47,107 nucleotides of DNA. It comes from a virus. Its lineage: Duplodnaviria > Caudoviricetes. The stretch covers positions 1 to 47,107 of IMG/VR virus record IMGVR_UViG_3300032294_002517, one strand, 5' to 3'. Under the pieces are notes generated by a model, which searched no databases, was not told the DNA's origin, and was given only the letters and a program-made list of their open reading frames with translations. Position numbers and translations under genes: made by a program. This document shows positions 25,604 to 47,107 of the stretch, in pieces. Numbering within the stretch: the stretch's first letter is position 1; each line of letters opens with the position of its first letter.

Positions 25604-25632
25604 TTGACAACTGGTAGTTACCAGTTTAGGAT
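25604..25632 (+). promoter_or_regulatory. promoter with palindromic operator
   Basis: TTGACA-17-TAGGAT; spacer contains ACTGGTAGTTACCAGT. Confidence 0.75.
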
Positions 25633-25719: not shown

Positions 25720-25812
25720 ATGGCACAAAAGTCAGGTGGCAGTAGTTTAACTTTGGTTTTAGAACAGGTTAAACAAGAAATTCAAGTTGATGCCGATGGT
25801 AATCCCGACTAG
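25720..25812 (+). pseudogene. truncated antirepressor-like gene fused to a CAST repeat
   Basis: MAQKSGGSSLTLVLEQVKQEIQVDADG then runs into repeat sequence and stops. Confidence 0.55.
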
Positions 25813-25917
25813 GGGTGGGTTGAAAGTATATATAGGTTATTGACTTGCATTAACCATTAAAATGGTTGCAAAATAGAAATGATCATGGGAGGGTTGAAAG
25901 GCGCACTTCGTTCGGGA
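25801..25917 (+). CRISPR. type V-K (CAST) array remnant with tRNA-Pro homing spacer
   Basis: partial repeat ...GGGGTGGGTTGAAAG, 38-nt spacer, atypical repeat GTTGCA...GGGAGGGTTGAAAG, 17-nt spacer GCGCACTTCGTTCGGGA. Confidence 0.85.
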
Positions 25918-25981
25918 TTATTCTGAGATGTTTTAGTATACTTAGAAGTGCAGTGGAATCAACTCCACTTCATCAAAATCA

Positions 25982-26141
25982 CGACATTAATTTGCGAAAA
26001 CTCAGAATCATTAAATTGACTCCAAAAAACAGCAACCGCGACATTAATCTGCGAATAACGACATTAATCTGCGAATAACGACATTAATCTGCGAATAACG
26101 ACATTAATCTGCGAAATGCGACATTAATCTGCGAACGTACA
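25982..26141. mobile_element. solitary V-K CAST (Tn7-like) transposon end
   Basis: six CGACATTAAT(C/T)TGCGAA TnsB-type sites, five of them at 20-bp period, ending in GTACA (TGTAC terminus on the minus strand). Confidence 0.85.
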
Positions 26142-26212
26142 GATTTTATTGGATGAGTAACCAGTTTTCCTTATTCCAATAAGTTATTTGATTTTTCAAT
26201 AACTAGAGCCAC

Positions 26213-26257
26213 ACAACCATTAACCCGTCTTTTGTGGCGAGACAGGTTAATGGTTGT
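26213..26257. terminator. long hairpin at the 3' end of the HTH gene
   Basis: ACAACCATTAACC-CGTCT...AGAC-A-GGTTAATGGTTGT. Confidence 0.55.
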
Positions 26258-26486
26258 CAAAGCTTACGCCAAAGTCAACGCCCAATACTTGTTCTAACTT
26301 TTTTAGGGTTGGGTAAGCGATCGCCTCAACTGCACCCTCTTCAAACCTTCGTAATGACAAGCGACTGATTCCAGCGTCTCTGGCAACTTGTGACAAGGGC
26401 GTGTCTCCCCTTGCTTCCTTTAGTCTTTGTGATAAGTCAGGAATTTCCGCTTCCTGGGTACGACGGACTTTCATGTTGGTAGTCAT
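26247..26486 (-). CDS. XRE-family HTH regulator
   Basis: RLKEAR..LSQVARDAGISRLSLRRFEEG. Confidence 0.85.
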   Translation of the reverse strand: MTTNMKVRRTQEAEIPDLSQRLKEARGDTPLSQVARDAGISRLSLRRFEEGAVEAIAYPTLKKLEQVLGVDFGVSFDNH

Positions 26487-26550: not shown

Positions 26551-26579
26551 TTGACAACTGGTAACTACCAAGTTACTAT
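26551..26579 (+). promoter_or_regulatory. promoter with the same operator as 25604
   Basis: TTGACA-ACTGGTAACTACCAAGT-TACTAT. Confidence 0.75.
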
Positions 26580-26664
26580 TATAAATATAAGGGAGGCAGC
26601 CGCTACACCTACCAAAGTTAAACGACTGCCTCCTACCAACCCTATAAAAAGGATTTCTTAAATC

Positions 26665-30287: not shown

Positions 30288-30509
30288 ATTGAAGTTGTGA
30301 TAAAATTGTCTGAATATTTATAATCTAATGCAAATATGGACAATTTAGCGCAGAAACTTCAATCATTGTTAGACGGATTTGGGAACAAGAACAATGGCAG
30401 AATTGAGAGACGGAGTGACGGTTTTTATTATGTGAATAGTGCTGTGATTATGCACCTTGACAGCGATTATCACAGCGCAGTTTCAATAGTAAAGCAATTG
30501 TTTATTTAA

Positions 30510-30582
30510 TCCTGGATGCAGGAATTGAACCTGCTTGTGCCATATTATGAGTATGGTGCTTAAACCAATCAGCCAATCCAGG
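30510..30582 (-). tRNA. tRNA with CAU anticodon, probably Ile2 (lysidine)
   Basis: complete cloverleaf CCTGGAT/ATCCAGG, CCATA-CTCATAA-TATGG, GCAGG-TTCAATT-CCTGC; resembles cyanobacterial/plastid trnI-CAU. Confidence 0.9.
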
Positions 30583-30641
30583 AAATGCGATCGCATAATG
30601 ACCAATGACCAAATCATTAGTTTGTAAACAAAGAGGACAAC

Positions 30642-30842: not shown

Positions 30843-30891
30843 TACCAATTACCAATTACCAATTACCAATTACCAATTACCAATTACCAAT
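30843..30891. repeat. STRR heptamer (TACCAAT)x7
   Basis: seven perfect tandem copies. Confidence 0.95.
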
Positions 30892-31731: not shown

Positions 31732-32007
31732 TTATTTATCCGATTCCTCAATTAACTTAGACACAAATTCTGAGCGATCGCCCGTCGGGACTTTTTGCAG
31801 TTTCTCGTAAGCAGACGGACTTATACTAAATGCAACTTTATATGTTGCCGATTCTGCTTTTGGCGGTCTACCACCTAAGTTTTTCCTGTAATATTGGTTG
31901 AGGCAACCTTGACAAGTTACCTCTTCAATATTGCTTGATAGGCGCGGGGAAAAGCCTTGATTACTACAAGACTGTTTCCCTGAATAGTGGATTTTATTGG
32001 TTGGCAT
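31732..32007 (-). CDS. small ribbon-helix-helix-like DNA-binding protein
   Basis: GGRPPK followed by VAFSISPSAYEKL...RSEFVSKLIEE. Confidence 0.65.
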   Translation of the reverse strand: MPTNKIHYSGKQSCSNQGFSPRLSSNIEEVTCQGCLNQYYRKNLGGRPPKAESATYKVAFSISPSAYEKLQKVPTGDRSEFVSKLIEESDK

Positions 32008-32730: not shown

Positions 32731-32866
32731 AGTTTTGTAGTTTTTCGTAAGCAGACGGGCCTATGCTAAATGCAACTTTATATGTTGCCGATTTTGCTTT
32801 TGGAGGTCTACCACCTAAGTTTTTCCGGTGGTATTGGTTTAGGCAACCTTGACAAGTTACCTCTTT

Positions 32867-34642: not shown

Positions 34643-35158
34643 ATGAACAACAATTATGGAATGCCTCAAACACGAGACAAATGTTATGGTATGTCCGCTT
34701 GCCTTACTTACTGGGCTTTTAAATGCCGTGACAGAAAACGCAGCCCAGCGATGGGTGCTAAAACATGGACTTACTTGGAATCCAGTATCAGAAATTCGGC
34801 GGAAATATCAACTAATTTAGAGGATTATTTGCAGCGACTTTGTGATAAACTTTGTTCACAATTACGCCCAGTTGAATTAACAAAAATAATTCAACCTACT
34901 CAAAGAATCCTGCGAGTAAATGAAGACGCTACGGAAATTAAAGAACTTCCCATTGACCAAAATCTTGTATTTATGGGATGGTTGGATTTAATTGCTGACA
35001 TTCAACCACACGGATTTACAGAGTGGGATGTACTTGAATTATTGCGAACTAAAGCAGGAATCATTCAAGTAATTTGCAGGTTACGATTCGAGGAAGATCG
35101 TAGTTTAGGGTTGGATGAGCCAGAGGAATTTATAGAAGTTGAGGTGACAAATGTTTGA
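34643..35158 (+). CDS. cas11: type IV-B small subunit (Cas11-like)
   Basis: helical 171-aa protein overlapping csf2; assignment mainly by synteny. Confidence 0.6.
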   Translation: MNNNYGMPQTRDKCYGMSACLTYWAFKCRDRKRSPAMGAKTWTYLESSIRNSAEISTNLEDYLQRLCDKLCSQLRPVELTKIIQPTQRILRVNEDATEIKELPIDQNLVFMGWLDLIADIQPHGFTEWDVLELLRTKAGIIQVICRLRFEEDRSLGLDEPEEFIEVEVTNV

Positions 35159-36281
35159 TAATTACAATGTTTTTGACCGTGAAAGATTGACTCTACATTG
35201 TGTGATTACAGCACAAACACCCTTATCACATATTGGGGAAGTGTCGGGAAATGTGAGCAACTTAAAAACACTAAAGTTACTTGATTTTGAAGGCAATCCT
35301 AGAAGTGTTTTCACCTATTCTGGTAATGCCTTGAGAAATGGATTGTTGCGGCGTGTTGGTGTGGCTGCGGCGTTAACTGAATTAGGGTTGCAAGTGAATC
35401 CTGATACACACCATACAATGTTTGCGGGTGGCAGAATTGATGCGGGTACAGCTTCAGACATGGAGCTTGACAAAAAGATCCGGGTTTTAATGCCTTGGCT
35501 GTCGGTTCTGGGGACTGCTAAACCTGCCAAAGTTTTCGGCTCTAAAGACGCTCAAATGGTGCAAGGCAGAATCAATGTAGGCTCTGCTTATTTGGCTTGC
35601 TATGAGTCAGCAGAATACATCTACAACCAGATACCAGCGATACTACCACCGGAAATACAACCAGCTATTCAGAAGCTAATTGAAGCTAAAAATAGATTAT
35701 CTTCAGACCCTTTTATCCCTACAAAGTCTGAGGACTTAGATAACTGGAATCAGGCAAAAAATGATTATTTGCCTTTAATTAGAAAGGTGATGAAAACTTG
35801 GACTGAGTATTTGACGATTGATCAAACTACTCGCAGGGATGCAACTTTAGACCCCAATTTAATTAAATTTCTGCCCACAGAGGTTCAGGCGCAATTAAAA
35901 GGCGACGGCACGGCTAAAGAGAAAAAATCAGATCAGATGATTGCTTCTGATAGATTAATTATGCCAGGAGCAAAACTATACTCAAGATGGGACTTGAACT
36001 GCACCAAAGTCGAACAAGGTTGGATTTTTGATACTTTGTTAAAATTTGCACAGTTCCCATATTTGGGCGGTAAAGGCAATCGTGGCAATGGTCGCGTTAG
36101 CATAAATTTCTGGTTTAGTTCCGAGTCAGAACGCGGATTATTGTGGAGCTCTGAAAGTGGTGTAGAGAGCGATAGATTCAATCTTGCACACGCTAAATAC
36201 AGGGAGTATATCAGTCAATATCAACAGTTTTTAGGTGAGGCTAGAACATCAACTGAATTAAGGAGTTTGTTAGGTGGATAA
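35151..36281 (+). CDS. csf2: type IV Cas7-like backbone protein Csf2
   Basis: ITAQTPLSH, YSGNALR..LRR, MFAGG, P.LSVLG and terminal G-rich loop YLGGKGNRGNG. Confidence 0.9.
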   Translation: MFDNYNVFDRERLTLHCVITAQTPLSHIGEVSGNVSNLKTLKLLDFEGNPRSVFTYSGNALRNGLLRRVGVAAALTELGLQVNPDTHHTMFAGGRIDAGTASDMELDKKIRVLMPWLSVLGTAKPAKVFGSKDAQMVQGRINVGSAYLACYESAEYIYNQIPAILPPEIQPAIQKLIEAKNRLSSDPFIPTKSEDLDNWNQAKNDYLPLIRKVMKTWTEYLTIDQTTRRDATLDPNLIKFLPTEVQAQLKGDGTAKEKKSDQMIASDRLIMPGAKLYSRWDLNCTKVEQGWIFDTLLKFAQFPYLGGKGNRGNGRVSINFWFSSESERGLLWSSESGVESDRFNLAHAKYREYISQYQQFLGEARTSTELRSLLGG

Positions 36282-36963
36282 CTTAAAAATAACGGCACAT
36301 TTAGCAACATCTTTAGGAGCTTATGATAACTGGAGTCCGTCGCTAGAAGGTATTTTGGTGTATAGGCTTTTAGAAGAAAATAGTCTGCTTTCACCTAATC
36401 CCACGCCGGATCAAGTAGCAGAAACCAAAGAGTTTATTGAGCAGAATTTACCACTAAAGCAAGGTGTCATTAAGTCAGAGAAATATTGGTGCGTGAGTTC
36501 ACCTTGCTATGTTTTGCAGGGTGAAGCTACAGACAAATATAGAAAACGATGGGATAATCACGAAAACAATTTAGACTGGGGTAAGCGCAAACCTAAGTTT
36601 TTAACAGGTGAAGGTGCGGAAAAATCCTATGATTTACCGCTTTACACAAGGTCAATCAACTCTATTTCTTGGTTTGCTGTGGGCGATAAAACGGCAATCA
36701 AAAATCTTTTGTCGTCTGTTACTCACATTCAGAAAAAGCGTAGTTACGGCAATGGTGAAGTCAGGGAATGGGAAATAGGGATAATTTACGATGATTATCA
36801 TCTGTGGCGTGATAATAAATTAATGCGTCCTATTCCTGTTAGATTAATTGATCGAAAAATAGATAATCCTCAGATGGTTTGGGGATGGAGAAGCCCCGCT
36901 TGGTTGGCAGCAAATAAAGAATTGTGCTATATGCCAAAGGATAGCGTGATTTATGCTAAGTAA
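36274..36963 (+). CDS. csf3: type IV Cas5-like protein Csf3
   Basis: LKITAHL, WFAVGD..I..LL..VTHIQKKRSYGNGEV, LMRPIP, GWRSPAW. Confidence 0.88.
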   Translation: MDNLKITAHLATSLGAYDNWSPSLEGILVYRLLEENSLLSPNPTPDQVAETKEFIEQNLPLKQGVIKSEKYWCVSSPCYVLQGEATDKYRKRWDNHENNLDWGKRKPKFLTGEGAEKSYDLPLYTRSINSISWFAVGDKTAIKNLLSSVTHIQKKRSYGNGEVREWEIGIIYDDYHLWRDNKLMRPIPVRLIDRKIDNPQMVWGWRSPAWLAANKELCYMPKDSVIYAK

Positions 36964-37699
36964 CGGATCTGGCGTTCAATATCCCTGGTTAAAAAAGAAA
37001 ATAATCAGGGCAAAAGACTCAATTAAAATCTGGCTAGAACAATGCAATCATCAAGTGTATGCGAGTGTTTCTGGCGGTAAAGATAGCCTAGTGATGTCTC
37101 ATTTAATCAGGCAGGTTTACCCAGATTGTCCTTTGGTATGGGTAAATCAGGGATTGCTTGCCGAATGGGATGATTGCGTTGAGCTTTTAGAGTATTTAAA
37201 AACTCAAAACTGGAATATTATTGAACTTTGCCCAGTACGTGATTTATGGCATTTATACCTTGATTATGGCGTTCCACTTGAAGGAACAATGGATACAAAA
37301 GCCGACAAATTAATTAATCAAAAATTAATTTATGACCCGCTTAATGAATACCAAGAATTAAATAATATCAAGGGTTATGCGTGGGGTATTCGTAAGCAAG
37401 AAAGCAGGAATAGGGCATTTTACCTTAATAAATATGGTGAAGTGCATACCCTTAAAAATGGGTTGATTTGTTGTTCACCTGTGGCATTTTGGACTACTCA
37501 AAATATTTGGGAATACATTGATATGTACTCGTTAAAATATCCTGCCATTTATGATGTTGATAGAATGACAGTTAGGAATGGATGCCCAATCGGCACAACA
37601 GGTGCTAATTGGGGAAGACTGGCAGAATTAAGAAAGCATTATCCAGGTATTTATAATCAATTCGTTGTTAAATTCCCGCAAATATCAACCTATGTCTAA
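36953..37699 (+). CDS. cysH: CysH-like PAPS-reductase-fold protein of type IV-B
   Basis: SVSGGKDS PP-loop, GIRKQES..R, P..FWT..IWEYI. Confidence 0.9.
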   Translation: MLSNGSGVQYPWLKKKIIRAKDSIKIWLEQCNHQVYASVSGGKDSLVMSHLIRQVYPDCPLVWVNQGLLAEWDDCVELLEYLKTQNWNIIELCPVRDLWHLYLDYGVPLEGTMDTKADKLINQKLIYDPLNEYQELNNIKGYAWGIRKQESRNRAFYLNKYGEVHTLKNGLICCSPVAFWTTQNIWEYIDMYSLKYPAIYDVDRMTVRNGCPIGTTGANWGRLAELRKHYPGIYNQFVVKFPQISTYV

Positions 37700-38444
37700 C
37701 TGCTACCTGTGCGCTAAACCCGGTTCTAATCCCTTGGAATTATCCAGCACCTTCACAATGCACTCATCAGCTAAATGTCCAGATTCTAAGGTGTTGTGCG
37801 ATCGCTGTTACTCTACTATTTCTGGTAATCAAAAGCAGCTTTGGTACTGGAATGAGGGTAAGAATAAATGGTCTAAATTGTGGGGGCGTTCTTTGTCCAG
37901 GGTGTATCAGGGTGATAAATTAATTGCACCAATAATTGAAGGGGAGTACACAGAAGGTAAAGATACTTTTTCAATAGTTAAAAACTTAATGACCAGGGTA
38001 GAAATTAGAGAATATTTGTTGAATCCCCCTGAACCACCATTTACTATCGCTATAGCTGAATCAGGGCAAAAACATATTATTCCTTGGGCGTTAGAAGCGC
38101 AAAGCCGGGATCTATTCCCTGCGCAATTTGAGCTTGATACTGTTTATATTGATGATAGATTTAGAGGGTTTTTGCAAGTATATGAGCAATTGATGGGGTT
38201 AGGATTTAGTAAAACTGAGATTGATTCAGGGGATTATCGAAGCGATAGATTGATGAAAGTTTTTGATAAATACTGGGAACTTGAGGATCGTATATCGGGT
38301 ATTAGGGGGACTAGATTAATGCAATTGATAAGTTATATCGCTCAATCACAGGATGTGCCACCAATTGCGGAAATAGTAGAAATTCCTGTAATCCCTGCCC
38401 AATCAAAAGTACCTAAAAAGCCATTGCAATTATCTTTGTTTTAA
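37692..38444 (+). CDS. csf1: type IV large subunit Csf1 (Cas8-like)
   Basis: CYLC...LCDRC zinc finger and PPEPPF..AIAESGQKHII motif; ends in QLSLF. Confidence 0.85.
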   Translation: MSNCYLCAKPGSNPLELSSTFTMHSSAKCPDSKVLCDRCYSTISGNQKQLWYWNEGKNKWSKLWGRSLSRVYQGDKLIAPIIEGEYTEGKDTFSIVKNLMTRVEIREYLLNPPEPPFTIAIAESGQKHIIPWALEAQSRDLFPAQFELDTVYIDDRFRGFLQVYEQLMGLGFSKTEIDSGDYRSDRLMKVFDKYWELEDRISGIRGTRLMQLISYIAQSQDVPPIAEIVEIPVIPAQSKVPKKPLQLSLF

Positions 38445-44240: not shown

Positions 44241-44466
44241 AACAAAGTAACCCGCCTTTATCGGGTGAAAAACTAACCATTGGAACCACCGGAATACCGC
44301 AAATATTCCTGCGTGGTATGGTTTCAATAATTATATCATTGTTTCGATACTCTTATTAATTCTTCAATAACTTAGGATACAATATTATCCAGTCGCGTGA
44401 TGGTGTTGGTAGCACCGATTCACCACTGGCTGTAGGTCTTGTACACCCACATTGATATTATTCCCA

Positions 44467-46383
44467 ATGAAAACTATTAAAATCAAGGTCAAACTTTTTG
44501 CTGAACAGGCGCAATCATGCGATCGCTACCTAGAAGAATTGACATGGCTATGGAATCAGGTATTGGCTAATCAATTGCATAACCATTGCATCACCTGGTA
44601 CAACTGGGCTGGTAAGTTGAGCGCAGATTTAGCTAAGGCGACGGAAAAGTTAGAGAAGCTAAAACCGGAACAACAGCAGCTTGTTAGGAACTACTACCGC
44701 AGCAAAGACAAGCCAAAACTCAACAAAAAAGAACAGGAATTAGTTGCCAAATTTGATATATTTTCCCGGTGGTTGCCGTTTGACTTAGAAAATATTATTC
44801 CCGTACCTTTGCGAGTTGGCAACAGTGGCTACGAGGGCTTATCGTGCCAGATTGCTACAGGCGGAAGTTACTGGAAACGGGACGATAATTTTAATATTCC
44901 AATCAAAACCAAAAAGGGGATTATTCACGTCAAAGGGTCTAAATTGGTTAAGGGTGATTGCCCCTGGAAACGAATACAAATAACGCCGCATAATTATAAA
45001 ACTTTTCCCAGTGGTAAGTTTGAGGGGAGGGAATTAATAGATGTGATGAAGTTTGATAATTTGAACGGACTAAACGGGCTGAGAGCGATGCAGAATCTAC
45101 CTGATTTATCCGTTTCCTCGCACTACGTTGGAGGCTTGTTAGAGTTTTTTAAACAGTCATGGTTAGCGTTTTTAGACCCCAAAAGGGTGAATAGCAGGAA
45201 ACCAAAGTTCAAAAAAGACGCTGATAAAATTACCACCTTGTCGAATAATCAGTGTGCGCCAAATAAGATAGACGTGGCGAATGATTGGATTGATATTACT
45301 GGGTTCAATAAGTTGATTGTTGCTGACAAGAACTGGGTTAAAAGATTAAACATAGACGAGGTTCTACCCAGGACGTATATGCTCACGAAAAAGACATCAG
45401 GGTATTACATAAATATCGTCGTTGCTCATCCATTACAAGAAGAAAAAGCAGCTTTAACAAAGAAATTACTCAAGGTCAAAAAAGAGTTTGGCGAAGATAG
45501 TCAAGAGTACGAAGATACTAAGTCTAAAATCAAATTTATTGAACAACAAATCAAAGATTCATCAATTACACAAGGTAAGAATTTAAGCGCAGGGATTGAC
45601 CCTGGGGTACAGGCTACTGTGGCGACGGATCATGGGGCGCTGTTTCTCCCAAATCTAAGCAGGGAGCGCGTGTCAATCCATATCGAGGAACTACAATCAA
45701 AGCTTGATAATCTTGAGTTAATTAATGATAAAAAGTGGAAAGATTCAGGGCGCAAAGGTACTCGACCTAAGACAAAAAACGAGATTAAGATACAAGATAA
45801 AATTACCAGATTGCATGAACGTGGTGCTAATTCTTCTAATGCCTTTAATCATAAAATGTCAACTAGATTAAGCAGGACTTACGAGCATATAGCATGGGAA
45901 GATACCCAGCTAACTAATCTTCTGAAACAAACAGAAGCTAAAGCATTACCTGAAGGCGTGGGATATGCTCACAATGGTGCGTCTGCTAAACGGGGTTTAA
46001 ATTGGATTATGAGACAAAGATGCTTAGGTGATTTAAAAACTAAAACTAAGCAAAAAGTTGAGAATAGAGGCGGTAGTTTTCATGAACCACCTGCTAACTA
46101 CAGTTCTCAATTGTGCCATTGTTGTCATCAAAAAGGTGAACGATTATCACAGTATGAGTTTATCTGCAAAAACTCTGATTGTGAGTTATTTGAACAGGTG
46201 CAACAAGCTGACACTAATGCTGCTAGAAACCACAAACATAATAGTAGTTTTGAGCTAGGAGAAGTCAAATATCACAACACTAGATTAATCTATCAGAAAC
46301 CCAAAAGATTTAAAAAGAAACGCTTGACAAAGCAGATGGTTTTAGTTAATATTAATTTACCGCAGTTTGGACGGGATGACTAA
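44467..46383 (+). CDS. c2c8: type V TnpB-derived CRISPR effector, C2c8 (V-U2)-like
   Basis: TnpB-type N-terminus, RuvC GIDPG / WED / ADTNAA, CHCC..C zinc finger, about 638 aa, adjacent to an array, no cas1/cas2 in the window. Confidence 0.75.
   Translation: MKTIKIKVKLFAEQAQSCDRYLEELTWLWNQVLANQLHNHCITWYNWAGKLSADLAKATEKLEKLKPEQQQLVRNYYRSKDKPKLNKKEQELVAKFDIFSRWLPFDLENIIPVPLRVGNSGYEGLSCQIATGGSYWKRDDNFNIPIKTKKGIIHVKGSKLVKGDCPWKRIQITPHNYKTFPSGKFEGRELIDVMKFDNLNGLNGLRAMQNLPDLSVSSHYVGGLLEFFKQSWLAFLDPKRVNSRKPKFKKDADKITTLSNNQCAPNKIDVANDWIDITGFNKLIVADKNWVKRLNIDEVLPRTYMLTKKTSGYYINIVVAHPLQEEKAALTKKLLKVKKEFGEDSQEYEDTKSKIKFIEQQIKDSSITQGKNLSAGIDPGVQATVATDHGALFLPNLSRERVSIHIEELQSKLDNLELINDKKWKDSGRKGTRPKTKNEIKIQDKITRLHERGANSSNAFNHKMSTRLSRTYEHIAWEDTQLTNLLKQTEAKALPEGVGYAHNGASAKRGLNWIMRQRCLGDLKTKTKQKVENRGGSFHEPPANYSSQLCHCCHQKGERLSQYEFICKNSDCELFEQVQQADTNAARNHKHNSSFELGEVKYHNTRLIYQKPKRFKKKRLTKQMVLVNINLPQFGRDD
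46324..46352 (+). promoter_or_regulatory. promoter for the tracrRNA, inside the effector 3' end
   Basis: TTGACA-17-TAATAT. Confidence 0.7.
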
Positions 46384-46508
46384 CTTGTTTAGTCTATGGC
46401 TTGATGAGTTTAGGCTCAAAAAGCAAGAGAGATGGCGACTACTCTTATAGACCAGCCGGAACTATGGCTGGCAGACTCTCAAAGGGATTACCGAACTTGC
46501 AATTTTTT
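46359..46508 (+). ncRNA. predicted tracrRNA
   Basis: four hairpins, then anti-repeat CAGACTCTCAAAGGGATTACCGAACTTGCAAT (46472-46503) and T6. Confidence 0.7.
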
Positions 46509-46697
46509 GGCGAACCATAAGCGCGGTCAAAAACCTCGGACATTCGCCAAAATCTCAGAACCTAGACAAGCAAAGGGATTAGGGCGGTCTTTGCAGAATA
46601 TTAAAAGGGATTGAAGCGGCTAAAATAGACTTTTTGATCCGATCTGCCAAAACAGGCTTCAGGATTCAGCTATGTCAAGGGTTCTAGATCCCGGCTT
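46509..46697 (+). promoter_or_regulatory. CRISPR leader resembling cyanobacterial type I-D leaders
   Basis: GCGAACC...TCAAAAACC...TTCGCCAAAATC...GCCAAAA motifs upstream of repeat 1. Confidence 0.6.
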
Positions 46698-47107
46698 ATT
46701 GCAAGGCGGCTAATCCCTTTTAAGGGACTGAAACTTATCACTCATGATGTATTGCAGTTTATAGAGTTATTATTGCAAGGCGGCTAATCCCTTTTAAGGG
46801 ACTGAAACTAGCGCGTTATGCTGATAGTTTGAGTATTTCTCTGATATTGCAAGGCGGCTAATCCCTTTTAAGGGACTGAAACTCAGAGTCAGATAACTTA
46901 TTTATAATATAGCTTAGTATTGCAAGGCGGCTAATCCCTTTTAAGGGACTGAAACTTGTAAGGTTGATAATTTTTCAATCATTCTCTTATTTATTGCAAG
47001 GCGGCTAATCCCTTTTAAGGGACTGAAACCATAACCGCCAAATTCATCATCATCATTTGGCATATTGATTATTGCAAGGCGGCTAATCCCTTTTAAGGGA
47101 CTGAAAC
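46698..47107 (+). CRISPR. CRISPR array, 6 repeats and 5 spacers, cut by the window end
   Basis: ATTGCAAGGCGGCTAATCCCTTTTAAGGGACTGAAAC (37 bp) at 46698, 46772, 46846, 46919, 46993, 47071; spacers 37, 37, 36, 37, 41 nt. Confidence 0.99.

Follow-up and report, generated by a model that had tools for sequence, protein, structure and literature searches.

The left ends of type V-K CASTs such as ShCAST and AnCAST consist, in order, of an array repeat, a truncated repeat (R*), a 17-nt anchor spacer and an end made up of TnsB sites (Ziemann et al. 2023, PMC9938897), and the left end is the PAM-proximal end of the element (PMC9876797). Racr and other solitary repeat units are host-type CRISPR repeats found in viruses without cas genes, after a predicted promoter (Camara-Wilpert et al. 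2023, PMC10651486). In the target immunity of Tn7 and Mu, an array of transposase-binding sites lies on the would-be target DNA. Features shared with each of these arrangements occur at a segment of 340 bases (25802–26141) in the virus record IMGVR_UViG_3300032294_002517, of which all 47,107 nt were analysed (hereafter, the window). This segment is the left-end cassette of a type V-K CAST, and it has the same order of parts as the ShCAST and AnCAST ends.

The window belongs to a temperate cyanobacterial phage, and encodes a terminase (PHROG E 1e-23), an integrase-like protein, DnaB, a sigma factor and tail proteins. A longer copy of the phage (G004, 60.7 kb) is identical to the window over the 20 kb surrounding the remnant and adds about 15 kb, including the gene for a 4004-aa protein that is likely the tape measure. 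The phage genome is larger than 60 kb, but G004 was possibly built from the window's own reads and was not counted as independent support.

A predicted phage promoter of the sigma-70 type (TTGACA-17-TAGGAT, 25604–25632, plus strand, matching 10 of 12 consensus positions) points into the remnant. It is followed by the 5′ 27 codons of a phage gene (25720–25802, plus strand), the intact homolog of which in the related phage L112 encodes 284 aa. At 25802 the gene runs into the 3′ 25 nt of a 37-nt V-K CRISPR repeat (25802–25826, plus strand; 100% identity over 25 nt to the array repeats of CASTs in G001, G010 and G170), and the fusion forms a 30-codon ORF (25720–25812) that ends at a stop inside the repeat (25810–25812). 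Next are a 60-nt segment with a weak hairpin (25827–25886, plus strand, fold z -2.3), the truncated repeat R* of the delocalised (anchor) crRNA (25887–25900, plus strand), a motif also located ahead of the anchor spacer of 67 natural ends, and a 17-nt anchor spacer that matches tRNA-Pro(CGG) (25901–25917, plus strand).

The transposon end proper begins with a distal TnsB-type site (25982–25998, plus strand), placed 57 bp before a tandem of sites, as in natural left ends of the same class. The tandem (26039–26135, plus strand) comprises five TnsB-type sites with a 20-bp period, starting at 26039, 26059, 26079, 26099 and 26119; all five 17-bp cores are identical, as are the first three 20-bp units. 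The terminal 8 bp (26134–26141, plus strand), the same as in the natural ends L078, L075 and L119, are joined straight to phage DNA. This right flank holds the last six codons of a phage gene (26142–26162, plus strand, aligned to L112 and L107; 144 aa in L107), and 26142–26146 would be the sole surviving copy of a 5-bp target duplication. Beyond it lie a strong hairpin between convergent operons, likely a terminator (26213–26257, fold z -6.0, conserved in L112), and the gene of a 79-aa helix-turn-helix (HTH) regulator (26247–26486, minus strand; PHROG transcription regulator, E 7e-6), which has homologs in L107–L110 and L112 and is a conserved flank marker of the slot. The original prediction, made from the letters alone, had described a truncated phage gene fused to a partial V-K repeat, an atypical repeat, a 17-nt spacer and a transposon end, and each of these lies where it had been placed; its five TnsB-type sites are correct for the 20-bp tandem, while the distal site at 25982 brings the total to six.

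Genomes were scanned for the truncated repeat plus spacer, giving 67 loci, most of which continue with TnsB-type sites and then the 3′ end of tRNA-Pro(cgg). In natural ends, a protospacer with a GGTA PAM lies in the adjacent tRNA-Pro(cgg), 53–64 bp from the end (13 ends measured). Under the published nomenclature the remnant is a left end: the truncated repeat and 17-nt anchor spacer stand beside the end, the arrangement given for left ends in PMC9938897, the TnsB-type sites have the natural spacing of 57 bp and then 20 bp, and the 8-bp terminus is that of L078. It departs from natural left ends in lying away from the tRNA target, with phage coding DNA as its flank and no anchor protospacer in a tRNA outside the end, in lacking cas12k, tns genes, an array and a right end, and in having five identical tandem sites rather than three varied ones, the terminal site being shortened to 22 nt.

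The 60-nt segment after the partial repeat had been taken for a spacer. Together with the flanking repeat parts it is 92% identical to G010, 90% to G170 and 80% to G275 at the same position, and 71 of 74 nt agree with L078; it is instead a fixed linker that connects the truncated repeat to the last repeat of the array. An acquired, self- or phage-targeting spacer at 25827–25886 was rejected, since the linker is common to natural CASTs. The closest natural copies of the cassette are L030, L078 and L092/L140. Downstream of R*, the closest genome is L030 (Anabaena sp. WFMT, at tRNA-Pro), with 162 of 169 nt identical, and the linker and tRNA-Pro spacer occur together at 97–98% identity in contigs of X2, X5 and X8, which are sequencing runs of three studies. 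The X5 and X8 contigs match 25830–26075 with 7 differences and then reach a normal long terminal site after two short sites, so the nearest parental end has 1+3 sites and not the five-unit tandem. The original prediction had given a parental end with the same tandem as one mark of a neutral scar, and in this respect the parental ends differ from the remnant.

With up to 3 mismatches allowed for TnsB-type sites and tRNA-Pro targets, and up to 2 for the 3′ end of a V-K repeat, searches of the window revealed no further site or repeat and no tRNA-Pro target. The ORFs of two natural CASTs, including a 635-aa Cas12k confirmed by NCBIfam (NF038191, E 6e-286), were used as tblastn queries, and gave no match for Cas12k, TnsB, TnsC or TniQ in the window or in the roughly 15 kb G004 extension; Pfam found no transposase family among the 46 window proteins. 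In the window and in G004 (rated 58% complete) only six sites are present, all on one strand, with no second inverted end. There is a single, partial repeat, the DNA upstream of 25802 is phage, and Rfam found only a tRNA in the window. The absence from the window of tnsB, tnsC, tniQ, cas12k, a second end and a tRNA-Pro target had been predicted correctly. The remnant falls short of a complete CAST; its origin is a V-K left end.

The empty allele is collinear across the insertion site. L112 shares with the window the end of the upstream gene, the promoter and the HTH gene; its slot contains the intact 284-aa gene, another gene of 160 aa and the final part of a third, and is 2044 bp long compared to 718 bp in the window. 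A contig of X2 matches the window up to 25802 and bridges from there to 26184 with 1347 other letters. Identity to related phages around the slot is about 67–80%, and about 90% for the X2 contig. Between the junction points of the remnant, related phages have 1.3–1.7 kb of phage DNA and no CAST sequence, and 1.3–1.7 kb of accessory operon was lost together with the transposon body. The slot is a variable, dispensable accessory locus, because L070 and L107 carry other gene sets there.

The two junctions differ in kind. On the right, the exact transposon terminus meets the phage six codons before the stop of a gene; on the left, phage codon 27 is joined to the middle of a CRISPR repeat with an overlap of about 1 nt and without a transposon end, and this junction was probably not made by TnsB. 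A full two-ended insertion is something we infer only, because no partner of the target duplication survives. With the empty-site alleles and the 1+3 parental ends, the proposal that a CAST had inserted, was mostly deleted and had its remaining end amplified is well founded.

Terminal runs were counted in 67 natural tRNA-Pro ends (L010 was dropped as a duplicate of L011, and the identical L012 and L022 were both kept) and in 31 distinct crRNA-side ends of the same class, using a site pattern that overlooks degenerate sites and undercounts some natural runs by one: in the first set the run is 1 in 10 ends, 2 in 18, 3 in 20, 4 in 19 and 5 in none, and in the second it is 3 in 25, 2 in 5 and 1 in 1. 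Identical cores never exceed two in the 67 ends, and no two tandem cores are identical in the 31. Three identical units and an unusual homogeneity, as first noticed, are thus confirmed against natural ends. The terminal site of the 31 ends is 23 nt in 28, 22 nt in 2 and 26 nt in 1; that of the window (22 nt) is without the conserved extra base of natural terminal sites. What was amplified is the unit that opens the tandem in natural ends (L092/L140, for instance), and the linkers between the sites are those of L078.

In the source run, both junctions are inside single long contigs, with even depth (30.1 and 29.5) and no other letters or alternative joint. The repeat unitigs have depths of 76.4 and 53.8, or ratios of 2.6 and 1.8; three identical units should give 3 and 2, and two such units 2 and 1. 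No host-type CAST end was among the contigs assembled from the source run, a gap that carries no weight either way. The expansion is real, because the depth ratios fit three identical units best, and some admixed shorter alleles are possible. An assembly artefact, whether phage reads wrongly joined to reads of a host CAST or a tandem with too many units, is highly improbable given the depth at the junctions and the worse fit of two units; the points in its favour are that the source-run graph breaks within the tandem, leaving no single piece that spans it, that the ratios fall below 3 and 2, as a mix with shorter alleles might produce, and that an identical record (L001) may derive from the same reads as the window.

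The scar could have arisen by a different route: the tandem may be a hybrid of left-interior and right-terminal units formed by end recombination, or the insertion may have been an aborted, one-ended replicative event. The last two inter-site linkers and the terminus are unlike those of the nearest parental left ends, in X5 and X8, and agree with right ends (L119 for both, L075 for the terminus); V-K elements are also known to transpose replicatively and to form cointegrates (PMC11406308). The left end of G010 (L078), however, has the same linkers and terminus natively. The natural right ends L075, L119 and L127 carry no more than two tandem terminal sites, of which the inner is degenerate, and a hybrid alone would not yield five identical cores. 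Nor would a one-ended event by itself delete 1.3–1.7 kb of phage DNA. Such a route is accordingly rated as rather unlikely.

The remnant is probably the product of an insertion away from the attachment site, a rescuing deletion and slippage, and most likely has no selected function. TnsB would have made the right junction, away from the tRNA-Pro attachment site, in an array-guided or untargeted insertion. Elements of the same class span 10.5–26 kb between paired ends, and an addition of 10–26 kb likely pushed the genome past its packaging size. Phage heads impose a packaging limit, and an oversize genome favours large deletions. A TnsB-independent deletion may then have been favoured, in which the right end, the transposon genes and most of the array went together with the dispensable operon. 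Slipped-strand events duplicate and delete units among 20-bp repeats; freed from selection for transposition, the 20-bp units of the remnant were likely duplicated and homogenised in this way, and slippage may also have overwritten the longer terminal site. Cognate TnsB would probably still recognise the six sites, and local target immunity could be a by-product.

Loss of units is seen in natural ends as well (L044, L059, L138, L154). Among 54 chromosomal tRNA-Pro ends with at least 5 kb upstream, 24 have less than 300 aa of Cas12k cover within 6 kb, a count that would take in any end whose Cas12k gene was displaced by an insertion. End decay is ordinary in chromosomes, where no phage benefit applies. 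Decayed or stacked chromosomal V-K ends (e.g., L004, L044, L053, L054, L080 and L154) resemble the remnant in consisting of a left end, an anchor crRNA and one or a few repeats, separated from cas12k, and several of them break inside a repeat, L053 within one base of the position in the remnant. They differ in remaining at the attachment site, with the repeat often cut by the end of another element, whereas the partner of the remnant is phage coding DNA; the tandem grew in the remnant and shrank in the chromosomal ends. The empty phage allele and a nearly identical CAST end were both present in run X2.

Some findings fit less well with a scar. The tandem rose to five, while all 6 departures from three among the 31 natural ends are downward, in part because degenerate sites were missed. 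To reach five units takes several slippage or conversion events, and the rest of the remnant has diverged only 3–4% from the closest ends. Finally, as a result of the deletion, a predicted phage promoter lies upstream of the repeat, the linker and the anchor crRNA.

How the insertion was targeted was examined with 226 V-K spacers from the fetched loci, none of which matches the window over more than 15 nt and none of which matches the insertion site. Weak matches to 26142–26260 occur in 15 of 301 genomes (12 with loci, none of them repeat-flanked). A GTT PAM lies 59 bp from the end, inside the natural range of 53–64 bp, but GTN has about an even chance of occurring there by estimate and was not counted. 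The flank is 75% AT compared to 59% in the window, which is compatible with untargeted insertion and undiagnostic; V-K systems also insert untargeted, at AT-rich DNA (10.1101/2023.07.14.548620).

The five identical consensus cores, compared to at most three sites in 31 natural ends, are the sole expansion among the ends examined, and the several events required to reach five units could point to selection for target immunity or for a TnsB sink, with more consensus sites favoured after the deletion. As immunity, bound TnsB would strip TnsC off nearby DNA and block new CAST insertions; as a sink, the replicating phage copies would titrate TnsB. ShTnsB binds each repeat and either end alone (PMC9527255), a mini element 50–500 bp away cut insertion driven by Sh TnsB and TnsC nearly 100-fold (10.1101/2025.08.27.672191), and immunity depends on how concentrated TnsB is locally at its binding sites (PMC9308760). 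Without the long terminal site, the end could still be bound and yet be mobilised less. V-K systems seem to be immune, by a mechanism that PMC11406308 leaves uncompared with that of Tn7. In Tn7 and Mu, immunity is a property of the element's own ends, while an immunity conferred by the remnant would be a hypothetical extension of that analogy. Its range is uncertain: Tn7 immunity spans more than 190 kb (PMC9308760), but about 20% of activity was back at 5 kb in a type I-F CAST (10.1101/2020.07.17.209452, PMC11702153), and the phage exceeds 60 kb. The natural ends also form several site classes, so protection is likely limited to one class; tnsB and cas12k are under repressor control in Anabaena (PMC9938897), so the pressure may be weak; and the remnant occurs in one lineage only. 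Selection of this kind is considered unlikely.

The position of the repeat behind the promoter at 25604 raises another reading, that of a Racr-like RNA decoy. A transcript from this promoter would supply repeat-linker RNA as well as the tRNA-Pro anchor crRNA; by pairing with host tracrRNA, these would load Cas12k with guides that have no target in the phage. The promoter upstream and the hairpin at 26213–26257 downstream are both predicted, and both conserved 3′ repeat halves are intact. As in Racr, the repeat is without cognate cas genes and downstream of a promoter (here by consensus match only). Solitary repeats located behind promoters function as RNA anti-CRISPRs, and interference was also reduced by a non-targeting crRNA (PMC10651486); further Racr precedent is given in PMC11656645. 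Unlike Racr, the repeat of the remnant is tied to a transposon end and was born of a deletion, V-K guides need a tracrRNA, and the RNA role is a prediction by analogy. Moreover, both RNA units adjoin every left end of this subfamily, so selection is not needed to explain them, and the promoter comes from the ancestral operon, with a likely repressor operator, and is inherited. The main text of the Racr paper is without mention of V-K or tracrRNA (PMC10651486), and no other viral contig has this repeat. A decoy is consequently very unlikely.

A combined form, in which the phage would have domesticated the end of its attacker, amplifying the TnsB sites to a binding-only immunity array and using its own promoter to express the guide-RNA halves as decoys for Cas12k, is likewise unlikely. 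If true, it would be a phage anti-CAST device of DNA and RNA alone. The overall interpretation of the original prediction thus held for the history of insertion, deletion and amplification, while its target-immunity element or TnsB decoy kept by selection found no direct support.

The original prediction had also named absence from all related phages as a mark of a neutral scar. A TnsB-type site was present in 0 of 4 related phage records (22–82% complete; two look identical at the locus), and the empty-site contig is also without one. This is weak evidence on the fate of the remnant within the lineage that bears it, because the relatives are distant and incomplete. In four scans of viral collections for CAST motifs, nothing came up but the identical copy and a single locus of the attachment type (L113), and a metagenome scan for the linker plus tRNA-Pro junction returned none; a metagenome scan for the HTH protein returned 2 distant loci. 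Annotated plasmid and phage collections gave no match, and no prophage copy of the left flank was present among 401 genomes. L113, a viral contig with a V-K end, was rejected as a second case, being at its own anchor target beside an integrase. In the literature listings searched, there was no paper on a solitary V-K end in a phage or on a phage using a transposon end or target immunity as a defence; the available text of PMC9881144 has nothing further on phages, and that of 10.1101/2021.07.06.451292 no target-immunity data.

A review attributes nearly all natural V-K insertions to the attachment-site crRNA (PMC11406308), and even as a scar the remnant is field evidence for the insertion of a V-K CAST into a phage off its attachment site. 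The likely outcome for the phage was escape via a large deletion. With six consensus sites and without the long terminal site, the remnant is a natural test substrate for questions of single-end immunity and its distance, the effect of site number, and the role of the terminal base in strand transfer. If it has been selected, it would represent a new kind of phage counter-measure against RNA-guided transposons.

Several other features of the locus and the window were recorded. The product of the truncated gene has no convincing match in NCBIfam (best E 0.006, far under the cut-off) and no match in PHROG. Atlas look-alikes of the 284-aa homolog, with ORF6N, Rha or AntA domains, score 0.86–0.87, under the 0.9 threshold, and its antirepressor-like nature is a lead only. 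The start of this gene (25734–25757) is complementary at 22 of 24 nt to 26611–26634, a hairpin leader downstream of a promoter at 26551, and in L112 the leader and gene start share a matching change. The pairing resembles the antisense control of a phage antirepressor, of the P1 C4 or P4 CI type; Rfam found nothing at gathering score for the leader. The same 16-bp palindrome occupies the 17-bp spacers of two sigma-70-type promoters (25610–25625, a likely operator, and 26557–26572) beside the 79-aa HTH gene. It differs in L112, where the -35 hexamer of the first promoter is kept, and palindromes and HTH gene likely form a variable repressor-operator module.

Among the natural ends, the linker is paired with a tRNA-Ala anchor spacer in L078, L079 and L080, and with tRNA-Pro in the window and L030; left-end modules appear to have been swapped at the truncated repeat. 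In L053, L054, L080, L094, L044, L154 and L113, the V-K repeat upstream of the anchor crRNA is fused to another transposon's end, often 12–18 nt in, which suggests that V-K repeats are insertion hot spots for other CASTs.

Elsewhere in the window, the region 44452–47107 encodes a 643-aa C2c8-like type V protein (E 3e-52, under cut-off); after it comes an array whose repeat is 37 nt long, with 5 spacers inside the window. The ORF at 44452 was considered as a Cas12k and rejected, as it scores C2c8-like and has a different repeat. The 5 spacers have no match in the window or the fetched loci, the best against CAST loci being 14 nt, and the G004 copy of this region diverges (97% identity, with gaps). 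A type IV-like cassette is carried at 34643–38444, with matches to Csf2, Csf3, a PAPS reductase (CysH-like) and Csf1, all under curated cut-offs. A tRNA-Met(CAT) gene (30509–30583, minus strand) lies near a perfect tandem of 7 x 7 bp (30843–30891), and a pair of 133-bp repeats, 92% identical and about 940 bp apart, is found at 31793–31925 and 32733–32865.
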